This document shows, piece by piece, positions 42,926 through 51,415 of a stretch of DNA of 64,000 nt; positions within the stretch are counted from its first letter, which is position 1, and the number at the start of each line of letters is the position of its first letter. The notes under the pieces were generated by a model. It saw nothing but the letters and a program-made list of their open reading frames with translations, searched no databases and was not told the DNA's origin. The position numbers were made by a program, and so were the translations under genes. The DNA is from Parcubacteria group bacterium (GTDB lineage Bacteria > Patescibacteriota > Minisyncoccia > Phycocordibacterales > 21-14-all-47-15): assembly GCA_016181845.1 (NCBI GenBank), contig JACOYO010000005.1:66845-130844 (forward strand), written 5' to 3'.

Positions 42926-43008
42926 AAAATTAAAAACGCAAAACGAAAAGCGCAAAGGAAACGGTGCTGAATTTTGTTTTTAGTTTTTCGTTTTGCATTT
43001 TACGTTTT
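42926..43008. repeat. ~85-bp intergenic hairpin repeat, copy between rplF and rplR
   Basis: aaaaacgcaaaacgaaaagcgcaaaggaaacggtgctgaattttgtttttagtttttcgttttgcattttacg; arms aaaacgcaaaacgaaaa / ttttcgttttgc(a/g)tttt form a ~17-bp stem. Confidence 0.7.
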
Positions 43009-43544
43009 TACCCGACCGTCTTCTTCCCTTGCTTCCTTCTAATCACTTCGTTTTCATACCGAATGCCTTTGCCTTTATACGGCTCAGGTTTTTTGTAAGC
43101 GCGTATAGTCGCGGCAAATTGCCCGACCAATTCCTTGTCAATTCCGCTCACGGTAATTGTATTCTTTTCAATCACCGCCGAAACACCTTCCGGAATCCGC
43201 ACCAATACCGGATGCGAAAAGCCGAGTGCTAATTTCAAATCCTTTCCGGCAAGTTCCGCGCGGAAACCGACTCCTTCTATCAATAATTTTTTAGCAAAAG
43301 GACGGTTAACTCCCTCTATCATATTTTTGATGTGCGCCATGGTGGTGCCCCACATCATTTTTGTTTGTATTGAAGCATTCGACGGAGCCGCTTTTATTTC
43401 ATTGCCTTCTATGTGAACTGAAACTCGGTCGGCAAAACGCTTTGAAAGTTCTCCTTTCGGGCCTTTCACGGTCACCGAATTGCCACTGACAGTTACAGTG
43501 GTTTTGTCTGGAATAGTAAGTATTTGTTTGCCAATTCTGCTCAT
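43008..43544 (-). CDS. rplF: 50S ribosomal protein L6
   Basis: MSRIGKQILTIPDKTTVTVSGNSVTVKGPKGEL... Confidence 0.9.
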   Translation of the reverse strand: MSRIGKQILTIPDKTTVTVSGNSVTVKGPKGELSKRFADRVSVHIEGNEIKAAPSNASIQTKMMWGTTMAHIKNMIEGVNRPFAKKLLIEGVGFRAELAGKDLKLALGFSHPVLVRIPEGVSAVIEKNTITVSGIDKELVGQFAATIRAYKKPEPYKGKGIRYENEVIRRKQGKKTVG

Positions 43545-43551
43545 AATAATA

Positions 43552-43630
43552 AATTAAAAACGCAAAACGAAAAGCGCAAAGAAAACGGTGCTGAATTTTG
43601 TTTTTAGTTTTTCGTTTTGCATTTTACGTT
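43552..43630. repeat. ~85-bp intergenic hairpin repeat, copy between rpsH and rplF
   Basis: Near-identical to copy at 42926. Confidence 0.7.
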
Positions 43631-43636
43631 GTTATA

Positions 43637-44023
43637 CTACCAAATCTGAAAAAGCACTTCGCCGCCGACTTTCTCCGCGCGCGCTTCTTTATCGGAGAGT
43701 ATCCCTTTCGGCGTTGAGAGCACGCTCATGCCATATCCCTGTCTTACGGAAGAAAGTTCACGAAATCCTTTGTACGCGCGCTGGGATAATTTTGATACCC
43801 GTTTTGCCCCATGAATACGCGGCGATGTCCCGACATACGCAAGTTCAATAACAATCAATTTGCGCGCTTTTTTGCCAAGTATGTCAGCTGATTTTATGTA
43901 TCCTGCTTTGGCAAGCGCGAGAGCAATGGCATATTTCAATTTTGAATACGAAACCTGCACCGACGGTTTCCCGACGAGTCCGGCATTTTGTATGTGCGTG
44001 AGCATGTTTGCGATTTGGTCCAT
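43637..44023 (-). CDS. rpsH: 30S ribosomal protein S8
   Basis: MDQIANMLTHIQNA... canonical S8. Confidence 0.9.
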   Translation of the reverse strand: MDQIANMLTHIQNAGLVGKPSVQVSYSKLKYAIALALAKAGYIKSADILGKKARKLIVIELAYVGTSPRIHGAKRVSKLSQRAYKGFRELSSVRQGYGMSVLSTPKGILSDKEARAEKVGGEVLFQIW

Positions 44024-44032
44024 AATAATAAA

Positions 44033-44110
44033 TTAAAAATGCAAAACGAAAAGCGCAAAGGAAACGGTGCTGAATTTTGTTTTTAGTTTTTCGTTTTGCA
44101 TTTTACGCTT
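44033..44110. repeat. ~85-bp intergenic hairpin repeat, copy between rpsZ and rpsH
   Basis: Near-identical to copy at 42926. Confidence 0.7.
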
Positions 44111-44113
44111 TTA

Positions 44114-48666: not shown

Positions 48667-48675
48667 AATAATAAA

Positions 48676-48760
48676 TTAAAAACGTAAATCGAAAAACGCA
48701 AAAGAAACGATGCTAAATTTTAATTTCATTTTTCGTTTTTCGTTTTGCATTTTACGCTAT
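48676..48760. repeat. ~85-bp intergenic hairpin repeat, diverged copy between groES and groEL
   Basis: aacgtaaatcgaaaaacgcaaaag...tttttcgttttgcattttacg. Confidence 0.6.
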
Positions 48761-49062
48761 TTAATGATCGCCAATAATGAATCCTCGCGGATAATATAGT
48801 ATTCTTCCCCGTCAATTTTTACTTCATCCGGACCATATTTTGAAAAAACGACCATGTCTCCTTTTTTTACCTGAAGCGGAATAAAAACGCCGTCATCATT
48901 TCGCTTGCCTTCTCCCACGGCAATCACTTTCCCATGCTCCGGTTTTTCTTTGTCAACGGTATCGGGAATAATGATTCCCGATTGTGTTTTTGTTTTTTCA
49001 GGAGTCGTTGGCTTCACCAGCACGCGGTCTCCCAAAGGAATAATACTATGTGTTGTGCTCAT
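48757..49062 (-). CDS. groS: co-chaperonin GroES
   Basis: MSTTHSIIPLGDRVLVKP...GKVIAVGEG...; start at Met20 of the track ORF. Confidence 0.9.
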   Translation of the reverse strand: MSTTHSIIPLGDRVLVKPTTPEKTKTQSGIIIPDTVDKEKPEHGKVIAVGEGKRNDDGVFIPLQVKKGDMVVFSKYGPDEVKIDGEEYYIIREDSLLAIIK

Positions 49063-49230
49063 GATATTTTTCTTGAAAATATATAAGGCGCGCGTCCTGA
49101 AACATAATTTGTGTTTCATCCGGCATGCCTACTTTAATAATGGCAAAATTATACTTTGTTGTAGAAAAAAAGCAAGTCCAAACGAATCGTTGACTTCCAT
49201 TCAAATTCTGCTATATTGATTGATAAGGTT

Positions 49231-49452
49231 ATGGCTACAATACTCCCGTGGGTGCAAATTATATTGTCGGGGATTCTTATTACCCTGATTTTGATACAAC
49301 AATCAAGCGCGGGCGCCGGTGGCGCTTTTGGCGGAGGCGACGGTAGCGGCATACAATACACGCGGCGAGGAGCAGAAAAAGTGATTTTCAACGCGACAGT
49401 TATTACGGCGATATGCTTCGGTCTTGCGGCTTTTGCCGCCCTCTTTTTCTAA
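49231..49452 (+). CDS. secG: preprotein translocase subunit SecG-like
   Basis: 73 aa, two TM helices flanking a Gly-rich loop QQSSAGAGGAFGGGDGSG. Confidence 0.65.
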   Translation: MATILPWVQIILSGILITLILIQQSSAGAGGAFGGGDGSGIQYTRRGAEKVIFNATVITAICFGLAAFAALFF

Positions 49453-49561
49453 CACAGTTATTGTACGCGGCGGGTGCGGATGCCGCGCGCGCCGCGGTCT
49501 TCCTATCACGGCGAGCTAGGGCATTCTCTTGAGACACTCCGCACTTTCTTTAATTTTTCAA

Positions 49562-51337
49562 ATGGAATCAACGCAAGAAACTGACAGAAAATTATTTTCA
49601 ATTTTGATTTCGCGGCTAAAAGAAATTATTGCCTCGTTTTCAATCAAAGAAAAACAGATTTTCAAAATACTCGTTCTTACCGCCGTGTTAAGCGGATCGT
49701 CTTTTTTGTGGGTATTGCAACGCTCTTTTCTTGAGACGATACCAGCGCGCGGCGGCTCTTTTTCTGAAGGAATCATCGGTACGCCTCGTTTCATCAATCC
49801 GCTCCTCGCGGTATCAGACGCCGACCGCGATATGACAACCCTCGTATATTCCGGATTGATGCGTCTTGCACCCGATGACACTCTTATACCAGACCTCGCT
49901 CAAACATATACGATTTCACCAGACGGACGGACCTACACGTTCACGCTTCGGGAAAACTTGTTCTTTCATGACCGTTCCCCCGTTACAAGCGAGGATGTGG
50001 CGTTTACCATATTGAAAGCCCAAGAAAGTGCAGTCAAAAGTCCACGTCGCGCAAACTGGGACGGAGTATCGGTAAAAACAGACGGTCCCGATACTGTTAT
50101 CTTCGTCTTAAAGCAACCATATGCGCCTTTTTTGGAAAACACCACGCTCGGCATACTGCCCAAGCACTTGTGGGAAACGGTAACTGCTGAACAATTCAGC
50201 TTAAATCAATTAAACATTGCCGCGGTCGGATCCGGTCCTTATAAAATAGACAAAATAACAAAAAATACCGAGGGAATCCCTAGGCAAGCAATTTTATCTT
50301 CGTTTTCAAAATTTGTTTTGGGCGCGCCATACATACAAACCATACGCCTCACTTTCTATTCAAATAAACAAGATCTGCTCGCGGCATATCAGACCAGGTC
50401 CATTGATGCCATGAGCACGGTGCCACCATCGCTTGCGGAAACACTCTCAAAGCGCGGCGAGCGGATTGAGACAGCGCCGCTCCCCAGAGTGTTTGGTGTT
50501 TTCTTCAACCAAAACGAACAACCGCTGTTTGCCGACGCGGCGATACGGCGCGCGTTAAACATCATGACCGACCGCTCTATCATCATCAACGAAGTACTCC
50601 GTGGCTATGGCACTCCTCTGTTTGGTCCGCTTCCGAAAGGCGCTCTTGGATACCAAGAAGAAATAAGTGAAATAGACATTGCCGACCAAGATTCCCGAAA
50701 GAAAGAGGCGCTTGCCATTCTCACAAAAGACGGCTGGAAACCAAACGCTAAAGACGGCATTCTTGAGAAAAAAAGCAAAAAAGAAACCTTGCGGCTTGCC
50801 TTTTCTGTCGCCACATCAGACATAGCCGAACTCAAAGAAGCGGCGGAGCTCCTCAAGACGCAGTGGGAAGACATAGGAGCGGAGGTCACTTTGCAGATAT
50901 TTGAATTGGGCGACCTGAACCAAAACATAATCCGGCCGCGAAAGTATGACGCGCTCTTTTTCGGAGAAATTATCGGGCGCGATGCCGACCCGTTTGCTTT
51001 TTGGCATTCTTCACAGCGGCTTGATCCGGGATTAAACATCGCGCTGTATGCAAACATAACGACAGACAAACTTCTTGAAGCGGCTCGCACCACTTCCGAC
51101 AAACAAGACCGCGTAAAAAAATATCAGCTCTTTCAAAAAGAAGTCGCGGAGGACGTTCCGGCGGTATTCACCTATACGCCAAAATTTATTTACGCATTCC
51201 CAAATGCCGTGAAAGGATTTTTAATGGGTTCCATTACCGTTCCTGCCGACCGCTTTGCATCCGTATATACCTGGTACATTGAAACAAGCCGTGTGTGGAA
51301 AATTTTTAATACATTTAATAAAAATAACAATAATTAA
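49562..51337 (+). CDS. ABC transporter substrate-binding protein, family 5 (OppA/DppA-like)
   Basis: N-terminal anchor, SBP_bac_5-like blocks (TLVYSGLMRL..., FHD..P.T..DV); start uncertain (49529 or 49562). Confidence 0.7.
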   Translation: MESTQETDRKLFSILISRLKEIIASFSIKEKQIFKILVLTAVLSGSSFLWVLQRSFLETIPARGGSFSEGIIGTPRFINPLLAVSDADRDMTTLVYSGLMRLAPDDTLIPDLAQTYTISPDGRTYTFTLRENLFFHDRSPVTSEDVAFTILKAQESAVKSPRRANWDGVSVKTDGPDTVIFVLKQPYAPFLENTTLGILPKHLWETVTAEQFSLNQLNIAAVGSGPYKIDKITKNTEGIPRQAILSSFSKFVLGAPYIQTIRLTFYSNKQDLLAAYQTRSIDAMSTVPPSLAETLSKRGERIETAPLPRVFGVFFNQNEQPLFADAAIRRALNIMTDRSIIINEVLRGYGTPLFGPLPKGALGYQEEISEIDIADQDSRKKEALAILTKDGWKPNAKDGILEKKSKKETLRLAFSVATSDIAELKEAAELLKTQWEDIGAEVTLQIFELGDLNQNIIRPRKYDALFFGEIIGRDADPFAFWHSSQRLDPGLNIALYANITTDKLLEAARTTSDKQDRVKKYQLFQKEVAEDVPAVFTYTPKFIYAFPNAVKGFLMGSITVPADRFASVYTWYIETSRVWKIFNTFNKNNNN

Positions 51338-51345
51338 TAAAGAGT

Positions 51346-51415
51346 AAAATGCAAAACGAAAAACTAAAAACAAAATTCAGCGTTACTTCTTTTGTGTTTT
51401 TCGTTTTACGTTTTT
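51346..51415. repeat. ~85-bp intergenic hairpin repeat, copy in inverted orientation between the SBP gene and rnj
   Basis: aaaatgcaaaacgaaaaactaaaaacaaaattcagcg... is the reverse complement of the loop region of copies 42926, 43552 and 44033. Confidence 0.65.

Follow-up and report, generated by a model that had tools for sequence, protein, structure and literature searches.

Heptamer-built hairpin repeats between the genes of essential operons in Lloydbacteria-like Parcubacteria

We describe a small hairpin repeat, here called family A, that sits between the genes of essential operons in a 64,000-nt stretch of a Parcubacteria group bacterium (contig JACOYO010000005.1, positions 66,845 to 130,844; below, the window, to whose 64 kb all counts given for the window refer). 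Family A is very probably a young, genome-specific member of an abundant class of palindromic repeats, built from heptamers, which occupy intercistronic spacers of Lloydbacteria-like Parcubacteria and are subject to rapid gain, loss and replacement. The explanation that we prefer, and hold tentatively, is that of a copy-and-paste palindromic repeat that may be tolerated in essential operons through the start region it carries and, possibly, through a relay open reading frame (ORF) within it.

Motif enrichment and profile scores both show that the repeat family is genuine. The arm motif TTTTCGTTTTGCATTTT, with up to three mismatches allowed, has 23 matches where 2.1 are expected, a number attained in none of 100 shuffles. 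With a profile made from the copies, five sites score 77.7–93.6 bits, the one at 10837-10941 reaches only 19 bits, and the 64 kb hold no further match. The six sites listed in an earlier note on this DNA are all there, five of them strong and one degenerate:

42919..43004, minus strand: family-A copy in the L6-L18 spacer (5′ arm 42985-43001, 3′ arm 42933-42949, 14-nt linker, L18 ATG at 42918; 92.8 bits)
43545..43628, minus strand: family-A copy in the S8-L6 spacer (5′ arm 43609-43625, 3′ arm 43557-43573, 12-nt linker, L6 ATG at 43544; 92.6 bits)
44024..44107, minus strand: family-A copy in the S14-S8 spacer (5′ arm 44088-44104, 3′ arm 44036-44052, 12-nt linker, S8 ATG at 44023; 93.6 bits)
48667..48756, minus strand: family-A copy occupying the entire GroES-GroEL spacer (5′ arm 48737-48753, 3′ arm 48679-48695, 6-nt loop insertion; 77.7 bits)
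51344..51426, plus strand: family-A copy in the SBP_bac_5-RNase J spacer (5′ arm 51346-51362, 3′ arm 51398-51414, in sense with RNase J; 82.3 bits)
10837..10941, orientation ambiguous (19.0 vs. 16.4 bits): degenerate family-A relative between two GH130-like genes

The genes flanking the copies were identified by Pfam as L18, L6, S8, S14 type Z, GroES and GroEL, with SBP_bac_5 and RNase J at the fifth copy, which bears out the placement in intercistronic gaps of essential operons. Over 99 nt the three ribosomal-protein copies share 89–93% identity; aligned without gaps to the reference copy, the GroES-GroEL copy reaches 69%. The sixth site, reported as a divergent copy at 10838-10950, is present but so degenerate that its orientation is ambiguous: its arms pair perfectly (AAAAATGCAAAACAACA/TGTTGTTTTGCATTTTT), the ORF that begins in the arm ends in the loop, and the downstream ATG is about 70 nt away.

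The family-A unit of about 84 nt amounts to 12 heptamers (CGTAAAA, TGCAAAA, CGAAAAA, CTAAAAA, CAAAATT, CAGCACC, GTTTCCT, TTGCGCT, TTTCGTT, TTGCGTT, TTTAATT, TATTATT). The periodicity is strong: autocorrelation at lag 7 is 0.61–0.63, against 0.38 ± 0.04 in shuffles that keep the A-rich and T-rich halves, and none of 5000 shuffles reaches the observed value. On the sense strand, that is, the strand of the downstream gene, the 5′ arm reads AAAAUGCAAAACGAAAA and the 3′ arm UUUUCGUUUUGCGUUUU; the 5′ arm is invariant among the copies. The 17-nt arms that had been claimed are seen in each copy, and they fold into a 17-bp, AU-rich stem-loop with only 4-5 G-C pairs and a sense-strand minimum free energy of −16.5 to −20 kcal/mol. 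The loop, described earlier as a conserved one of about 35 nt, measures 35-41 nt, and its conservation is limited to the three ribosomal-protein copies.

Similarity among the copies starts at (G)CGTAAAATG, 0-8 nt past the upstream stop codon, and reaches beyond the arms to the very last base preceding the downstream ATG (…GCGTTTT TAATTTATTATT ATG). All five strong copies are in the sense of the downstream gene. The RNase J copy, previously called inverted, does lie on the opposite DNA strand, but so does its gene, and relative to that gene its orientation is the same as that of the others; orientation therefore tracks transcription, not DNA strand. A sigma-70-like promoter (TTGACT-17-TACGAT, 44345..44373, minus strand) heads the S14-S8-L6-L18-S5-L15-SecY operon. 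The elements themselves were called neither sigma-70-like promoters nor intrinsic terminators in a consensus scan (for promoters, two hexamers each matching at least 4/6 and spaced 16-18 nt; for terminators, a stem rich in G+C with a loop of 3-8 nt and a U tract), and the same scan detected GC-rich, short-loop terminators at convergent gene ends in the window. The three ribosomal-protein copies are thus internal to the operon.

The same gaps are filled differently in closely related genomes. The L6 protein has an identical match in a metagenome-assembled genome (MAG) of a Parcubacteria group bacterium; by the same protein, the nearest relatives are MAGs of Candidatus Lloydbacteria, and seven syntenic loci, with L6 identities of 78–89%, were compared. 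At six of them the gaps are:

L128 (L6 identity 80%): S14-S8 and S8-L6 are bare 12-nt gaps
L132 (89%): S8-L6 is 28 nt without a hairpin; L6-L18 is 91 nt with an AGCT-type hairpin of a different family
L133 and L134 (85% and 79%): gaps mostly short and bare
L130 (78%): hairpins of about 90 nt with AGCGATT/AGCGTTT units in S14-S8, S8-L6, L6-L18 and GroES-GroEL
L131 (85%): the three ribosomal-protein gaps hold three different families (TATGAAT, AGCTTTT and CATGAAA units)

The earlier note had taken 10-20 bp as the normal gap, and this is borne out by orthologous gaps of 11-12 nt in L128 and L134 and by the L18-S5 gap, which is 9-13 nt in every genome compared; bare orthologous spacers span 11-29 nt. 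At S8-L6, L132 and L134 have 28-29 nt and no hairpin; the window gaps measure 90-92 nt. Both presence/absence and replacement are thus seen at the same gaps, the insertion polymorphism that had been proposed as a check. It follows that the elements are not conserved native spacers, the finding that would have overturned the idea of a repeat family and that the syntenic relatives do not show. The differing contents of the gaps point instead to gain, loss and re-occupation on a short evolutionary scale. All the families share a common build: a stop codon, a few nucleotides, a heptamer arm, a loop, the complementary arm, about 12 nt, and an ATG.

Two further observations were made at these loci. 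In L131, the L6-L18 spacer (1382-1482) has units (CATGAAA, CAGGAAA, CTTGAAA and CATGAAG) that look like the opening codons of L18 just downstream (ATGAAACA); arm units may thus arise through slippage in the start region of whichever gene follows them. The block S14(Z)-S8-L6-L18-S5-L15-SecY-Adk-Map (window 44114-44394; L129, L130 and L134) stands apart from the usual upstream L14-L24-L5 genes and has a sigma-70-like promoter of its own and, ahead of an S14 start that lacks a Shine-Dalgarno (SD) sequence, a conserved leader hairpin (GCTAGC...GCTGGCT).

Family A is one of many. In the window and relatives taken together, same-strand gaps are bimodal in length: 30 are 16 nt or less, and 35 of 95 measure 70-130 nt, with a cluster at 85-92 nt. 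Of the 60-135-nt gaps, about half form hairpins of significant stability, with z-scores down to −8.7, and most of these have a period of 7 or 8 nt. A finder that presupposes no pattern returned 48 unique periodic, AT-rich hairpins in co-directional gaps. Unit sequences (CGNAAAA, AGCGATT, AGCTTNTT, CATGAAA and TATGAAT among them) are wholly different between families, within as well as between closely related genomes, and stems, which are 17 bp in family A, reach about 50 pairs in the class. Pairs of hairpins with at least 80% identity are confined to single contigs (5 of 22 pairs within contigs, from the window, L041 and L130, vs. 0 of 1106 between contigs), which argues for recent intragenomic copying in several genomes. 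In an independent Logan assembly of the same strain, contig L001 ends exactly at the element, as contigs do at multi-copy repeats; the strain occurs in the read sets SRR12113430 and SRR12113383.

The hairpins keep a characteristic position. They begin a median of 4 nt from the stop codon and end about 12 nt before the ATG, 38 lying nearer the stop and 9 nearer the ATG (p = 0.0002), and the sense strand of the loop is the A-rich one more often than not (19 vs. 7, p = 0.03). By gap type, 46 of the hairpins among the matches listed are co-directional, 8 convergent and 4 divergent, which is near the baseline. The genes 3′ of the hairpins are diverse housekeeping genes with no functional enrichment, and include EF-G, L4, L14, an S3-like gene, RF-1, SHMT, transketolase, MreB and pilins.

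When a metagenome scan was constrained by the outer arm cores alone, the matches listed included many heptamer-type hairpins, some unrelated palindromes and no close relative of family A (best 42 bits). Species-representative genomes, a collection that does not hold the source genome, gave a single true relative, L003, when scanned with an invariant 21-mer. Our literature search found no prior description of such elements in the Candidate Phyla Radiation (CPR, or Patescibacteria), so that the heptamer-armed intergenic hairpins apparently form a widespread and undescribed class.

At L003 (88-468), at L021 (3957-4335) and also at L029, L064, L067 and L123, the hairpin most like family A lies directly 3′ of a small ORF, which is frameshifted in L003. 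Heptamer arrays 5′ of this ORF can pair with the 3′ arm of the hairpin, so the ORF may lie inside a larger palindrome. The small ORF, which may be a 23S-IVS-protein-like gene, was considered as a general partner of the hairpins and rejected, being confined to this one cluster of near-identical loci. Among the matches listed, 17 of 110 pattern hits fall inside long ORFs as delimited by a simple ORF finder; these may be in-frame protein insertions, as with the Rickettsia palindromic elements, or artefacts of ORF calling.

The window holds two members of a second family, one of them with a single arm:

40047..40131, minus strand: second-family hairpin in the SecY-Adk spacer, with AGCTTNTT-type units in an 8-nt period
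31760..31794, plus strand: one-armed second-family array (ACCTAAC AAGCTAAA AAGCTAAA ACCTAAC AAGCT) in the L35-L20 spacer, directly 5′ of the L20 ATG

The SecY-Adk hairpin is common to the window, L128, L129 and L131. On its 3′ side, four genomes have a conserved TGTGTTATACT box, extended −10-like, which ends 6-7 nt before the adk ATG (window 40024-40046, minus strand). The TGTGTTATACT box suggests that adk-map is transcribed from an internal promoter as a leaderless unit of its own.

How genes start in this lineage matters for what an insertion in front of them may do. An SD-like 4-mer is found at −20 to −4 in 12 of 68 window genes and in none of the bare 9-13-nt gaps. To judge from these sequences, the genome looks largely SD-independent. 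Outside the elements, TANNNT hexamers in the window and relatives peak at −13/−12, in 24 of 122 genes as against about 3 per position. Many of the peak hexamers are good TATAAT or TATACT boxes, the −10 box ending 6-8 nt before the ATG, and examples lie upstream of 32185-33564, 12310-13104, 35820-38582 and 39427-40023, all on the minus strand; the peak suggests that leaderless mRNAs may be frequent in this Parcubacteria lineage. In a genome poor in SD sequences, internal cistrons presumably depend on short stop-to-start distances, and coupling by termination and reinitiation is known to weaken as that distance grows (PMC12548453).

Family A carries a small ORF that bears on this requirement. 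The mini-ORF begins with an ATG in the 5′ arm (AAAATGCAAAAC), ends with a TAA at the end of the 3′ arm, and is open for 22-24 codons (MQNEKLKTKFSTVSFALFVLRF and variants) in all five strong copies:

42930..42998, minus strand: mini-ORF of the L6-L18 copy, 22 codons (MQNEKLKTKFSTVSFALFVLRF), 9 nt past the L6 stop and 11 nt short of the L18 ATG
43554..43622, minus strand: mini-ORF of the S8-L6 copy, 22 codons, 14 nt past the S8 stop and 9 nt short of the L6 ATG
44033..44101, minus strand: mini-ORF of the S14-S8 copy, 22 codons, 12 nt past the S14 stop and 9 nt short of the S8 ATG
48676..48750, minus strand: mini-ORF of the GroES-GroEL copy, 24 codons, with a 6-nt indel in frame, 6 nt past the GroES stop and 9 nt short of the GroEL ATG
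51349..51417, plus strand: mini-ORF of the RNase J copy, 22 codons, 11 nt past the upstream stop and 9 nt short of the RNase J ATG

With a start 6-14 nt after the upstream stop and an end 9-11 nt before the next ATG, both junctions of the mini-ORF are native-like in spacing. The ORF has been retained through 9 + 9 substitutions and the 6-nt indel, the sole indel between copies. In simulations, random substitutions keep it in 30% of cases for each diverged copy, which gives about 0.09 for both and about 0.03 when the indel must also stay in frame. In the wider class, 11 of 48 hairpins are spanned on the sense strand by an ATG-initiated ORF whose stop lies no more than 25 nt beyond the hairpin; for the antisense strand the figure is 0 of 48 (p = 0.001; 8 vs. 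0 when the window is left out). The set selected by pattern gives 7 of 17 on the sense and 0 of 18 on the antisense strand (p = 0.003) among the matches listed. Four of the eight spanning-ORF hairpins from outside the window have the mini-ORF stop within 11 nt of the next ATG.

These features lead to the mechanism we tentatively propose. The unit would be transcribed within the polycistronic mRNA, where its 17-bp AU-rich stem-loop would begin a few nucleotides past the upstream stop codon. It would bring its own start region, 12 unpaired A/U-rich nucleotides, and its mini-ORF would split one 90-nt gap into two native-like junctions, of 6-14 nt and then of 9-11 nt. A ribosome would terminate at the upstream gene, re-initiate on the mini-ORF, melt the hairpin, terminate again and re-initiate on the real gene, a relay of the kind proposed for MIRUs, the interspersed repetitive units of mycobacteria. 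The element's presence in essential operons would be tolerated on account of the start region and mini-ORF that come with it. On this reading the element would be a self-compensating insertion, selfish or near-neutral, and not a dedicated regulator.

The relay step through the mini-ORF, if a real possibility on sequence grounds, is nevertheless doubtful, and several observations weigh against it or against other parts of the proposal. Frames open through the loop and the 3′ arm are equally common on both strands (50 vs. 43). An in-frame ATG heads 12 sense and 4 antisense frames, a difference that falls short of significance (p = 0.10; without the window, 9 vs. 4, p = 0.23). The contrast of 11 to none thus comes in part from the criterion on the position of the stop, which is confounded by the differing flanks of the two strands. 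A spanning ORF is missing from about three quarters of the class hairpins, among them every one in the orthologous gaps of L130 and L131, and the units of the ORF-less hairpins carry TAG or TAA in all frames, so that a relay ORF cannot be the general basis of tolerance. No codon-position bias was found in the substitutions among copies, which indicates that the peptide is not conserved as such. Orientation assigned by profile in other genomes is 9 sense to 5 antisense among the matches listed, which is not significant. Finally, no transposase, integrase or RAYT was found among the window ORFs scanned with Pfam. As neither a transposase nor a target-site duplication marks the elements in the window as mobile, copy-and-paste is deduced only from the near-identity of dispersed copies.

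Much of this would suit an element that is purely selfish or neutral, an explanation that may be correct although we think it somewhat unlikely. A folded insertion leaves about 12 nt free before the ATG, SD-independent initiation would go on undisturbed, and the mini-ORF would be an accident of A-rich and T-rich arms. Pairing has no strand preference, whether judged by folding energy (25 sense vs. 22 antisense, p = 0.87) or by a G·U-tolerant pattern (21 sense, 18 antisense, among the matches listed), and the five window copies have three pair-breaking changes and no compensatory ones. On these three negative tests the palindromes look symmetric, as expected if symmetry is kept at the level of DNA; both the growth of the arms and their symmetry may plausibly stem from slippage of 7-nt units and from template switching at the palindrome. 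The parity of open frames on the two strands, the lack of a spanning ORF in most hairpins of the class, the baseline-like split among gap types and the fast turnover between relatives also speak for neutrality. An accident does not readily account for five of five copies in sense with a fixed ATG junction, for an ORF that outlasts its substitutions and an in-frame indel, or for spanning-and-terminating ORFs on the sense strand only. Nor does it account for hairpins so strongly skewed toward the stop codon, with loops that are A-rich in sense. The absence of a sense-strand folding advantage and of covariation counts equally against a hairpin that decides the fate of the mRNA. As a cleavage site for RNase III, or a barrier to 3′-5′ exonucleases or to the 5′-3′ RNase J, the hairpin would set differing stabilities for adjoining cistrons, as REP and Correia hairpins do. 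Its stems, of 17 bp in family A and up to about 50 pairs in the class, start directly past stop codons, as 3′ stabilizers do, and stand in highly expressed operons; the window also carries genes for RNase J and a beta-CASP RNase. There are precedents in the Correia hairpins, which are cleaved or protected by RNase III (PMC2649163), and in the cyanobacterial hairpins between hupS and hupL, for which a stabilizing or coupling role has been proposed (PMC2670836). We still consider such a role unlikely: the gap sequence is not conserved, some close relatives have no hairpin there at all, and the fixed ATG junction is left unexplained.

That junction would be explained if the 3′ part of family A (TTGYGY, 17 nt, TAATTT, 6 nt, ATG) were a portable promoter driving a leaderless transcript of the downstream gene, much as Correia ends create promoters. 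In four of the five copies TAATTT lies at −12 to −7, the modal −10 position of the lineage, and in all five a TTG-containing hexamer lies exactly 17 nt upstream; the second-family hairpin between SecY and Adk is likewise followed by a conserved extended −10 box. The hexamers, however, match in just three of six positions each and go uncalled in the consensus scan, and the L6-L18 copy has its hexamer at −14. Other families at the same gaps lack the hexamers, a promoter has no need of the invariant 5′ arm, the TAA of TAATTT doubles as the mini-ORF stop, and AT-rich linkers yield such hexamers by chance; a promoter is accordingly improbable. It is still less probable that the heptamers are arrays of binding sites for an RNA- or ssDNA-binding protein (a cold-shock protein, S1 or a HutP-like protein) that gates translation of the next gene by opening or closing the hairpin, as has been proposed for the TAACTGA repeats of Beggiatoaceae. 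The strong 7-nt periodicity, the one-armed array 5′ of L20 and the position just upstream of SD-less starts, including those of ribosomal-protein operons as with TAACTGA (PMC4679880), would fit, but the unit sequences differ wholly between families, which argues against one sequence-specific binder, and no candidate protein came to light. An intrinsic terminator or attenuator between cistrons is hardly credible. A T-rich tract (TTTTTAATTTATT) does follow the family-A hairpin; the scan that found GC-rich terminators at convergent ends passed the element over, its 35-nt loop is closed by a stem with few G-C pairs, other families have no T tract, and essential genes without another recognized promoter lie downstream. 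These readings are not mutually exclusive, and the one we prefer, a copied palindrome that is tolerated through its start region and perhaps its mini-ORF, could coexist with others.

None of the known small repeats matches the elements in all respects. The earlier note had likened them to REP/BIME or MITE-type elements, and neither assignment is supported. Like the REP and BIME elements of enterobacteria and pseudomonads, they are multi-copy extragenic palindromes, often just past the stop codons in operons and co-transcribed with them, but at 84 nt with a 35-nt loop they exceed these in size, and they are oriented according to the downstream start codon. Their arms (AAAATGCAAAACGAAAA/TTTTCGTTTTGCGTTTT, around a 35-41-nt loop) have no GTAG-type head, the copies stand singly, one per spacer and none alternating in orientation as in a BIME, and no RAYT was seen in the 64 kb. 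A classical MITE should leave a target-site duplication, and the 5′ flanks (AAA, ACAA, AAAG, TAG, AAGA) and the 3′ ATG junction share no direct repeat; no related insertion sequence lies in the window. Presence/absence polymorphism of the MITE type does occur at orthologous sites (L128, L132 and L134), but strict sense orientation and the fixed ATG junction are unlike a MITE that inserts at random. The Correia elements of Neisseria (CREE/NEMIS) are similar in being about 100 nt long with inverted-repeat ends, gene-adjacent, co-transcribed, strain-variable and possibly of influence on neighboring genes (PMC2649163). They differ in that their terminal inverted repeats are 26 bp long, their target duplication is TA and they contain an integration host factor site, none of which is seen here, and in that their arms are not heptamer arrays.

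Two groups of heptamer repeats come closer. The short tandemly repeated repetitive (STRR) sequences of filamentous cyanobacteria include runs of 7-nt units between hupS and hupL that can fold as an intercistronic hairpin, with a proposed role in stability or coupling (PMC2670836). Family A shares with them the tandem 7-nt units that can pair as an intergenic hairpin, but not the unit sequences or the host phylum, and no fixed start-codon junction, mini-ORF or turnover of families at orthologous gaps has been reported for STRRs. The TAACTGA repeats of marine Beggiatoaceae, some Cyanobacteria and Bacteroidetes are heptamers a few nucleotides 5′ of starts without a ribosome-binding site, ribosomal-protein operons included, for which a translational role or a mobile origin has been discussed (PMC4679880). 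They are direct repeats of one fixed heptamer and not palindromic, whereas the window has inverted arrays that form a stem, with units that vary by family; the one-armed array between L35 and L20 is their closest match.

MIRUs insert at start codons, carry an internal coupled ORF and are thought to have little effect on expression (Supply et al., 1997, as reviewed in PMC12548453). Both kinds of element are short repeats that lie in the intergenic spaces of operons, keep a single orientation with respect to transcription, sit at the start codon of the next gene and contain a small ORF, which in MIRUs is coupled to the flanking genes. MIRUs, however, are direct tandem units of 46-100 bp in variable copy number, have no hairpin, and their ORF overlaps the flanking codons (−4 spacing). 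Family A is a single palindromic unit with heptamer arms, its ORF is spaced by +6-14 and +9-11 nt, it resides in an SD-poor CPR host, and only about a quarter of its class has the spanning ORF. The idea that CPR bacteria, or Parcubacteria, host a phylum-wide class of translated palindromic repeats, with a relay mini-ORF and an unpaired A/U-rich start, as a hairpin-based and independently evolved counterpart of MIRUs, is rather unlikely; were it true, about one in three operon junctions in these genomes would depend on termination and reinitiation across mobile DNA.

Other kinds of element were also considered. Rfam gave no match for the elements at the gathering threshold, and at E ≤ 1 only spurious AT-rich matches to plant miRNA precursors (21-26 bits vs. 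thresholds of 83-211). CRISPR and TIGR arrays were rejected, as each copy stands alone at a scattered site and the window genes include none for a Cas or Nop-domain protein. Integron attC sites were dropped for want of R′/R″ core sites.

The window has some further features. A second repeat, of about 120 nt, occurs twice (28228-28344 and 46856-46979), the copies being 89–98% identical in their flanks. A long closing stem (ATCATAGTTTTTGAGAGAC/GTCTATCAAAAAYTSATGAT) encloses a conserved GC-rich hairpin and a second hairpin, which varies and yet still pairs (TCCGCCC..GGGCGGA vs. AATTTTGC..GCAAAATT). One copy lies 5′ of smpB and the other 3′ of groEL, an independent assembly contig breaks there, and Rfam has no match for the repeat, which could represent a structured RNA of unknown type or else a further small mobile element. 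Between convergent genes (55544-55619) there are two 38-nt units in tandem, with 97% identity and a small hairpin (GAAGGTTCCTCCTTC) in each. A tRNA-Ile with the anticodon TAT (UAU), which is uncommon in bacteria for reading AUA, is encoded at 22349-22421. At 14314-15767 a MutH-like endonuclease gene adjoins an N6/N4 DNA methylase gene, a probable restriction-modification pair, with a YfbU-domain gene and a tRNA-Ser beside it.

In closing, CPR bacteria form a sizeable and uncultivated share of bacterial diversity, about whose gene expression next to nothing is known. If the relay is real, it shows a way for mobile DNA to persist inside essential operons with translational coupling intact, and the element would offer a natural insulator part for SD-independent expression. 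If it is not, the class remains an abundant and apparently undescribed type of repeat. Such repeats break assemblies, swell the intergenic regions of otherwise compact genomes, and could serve as strain markers.

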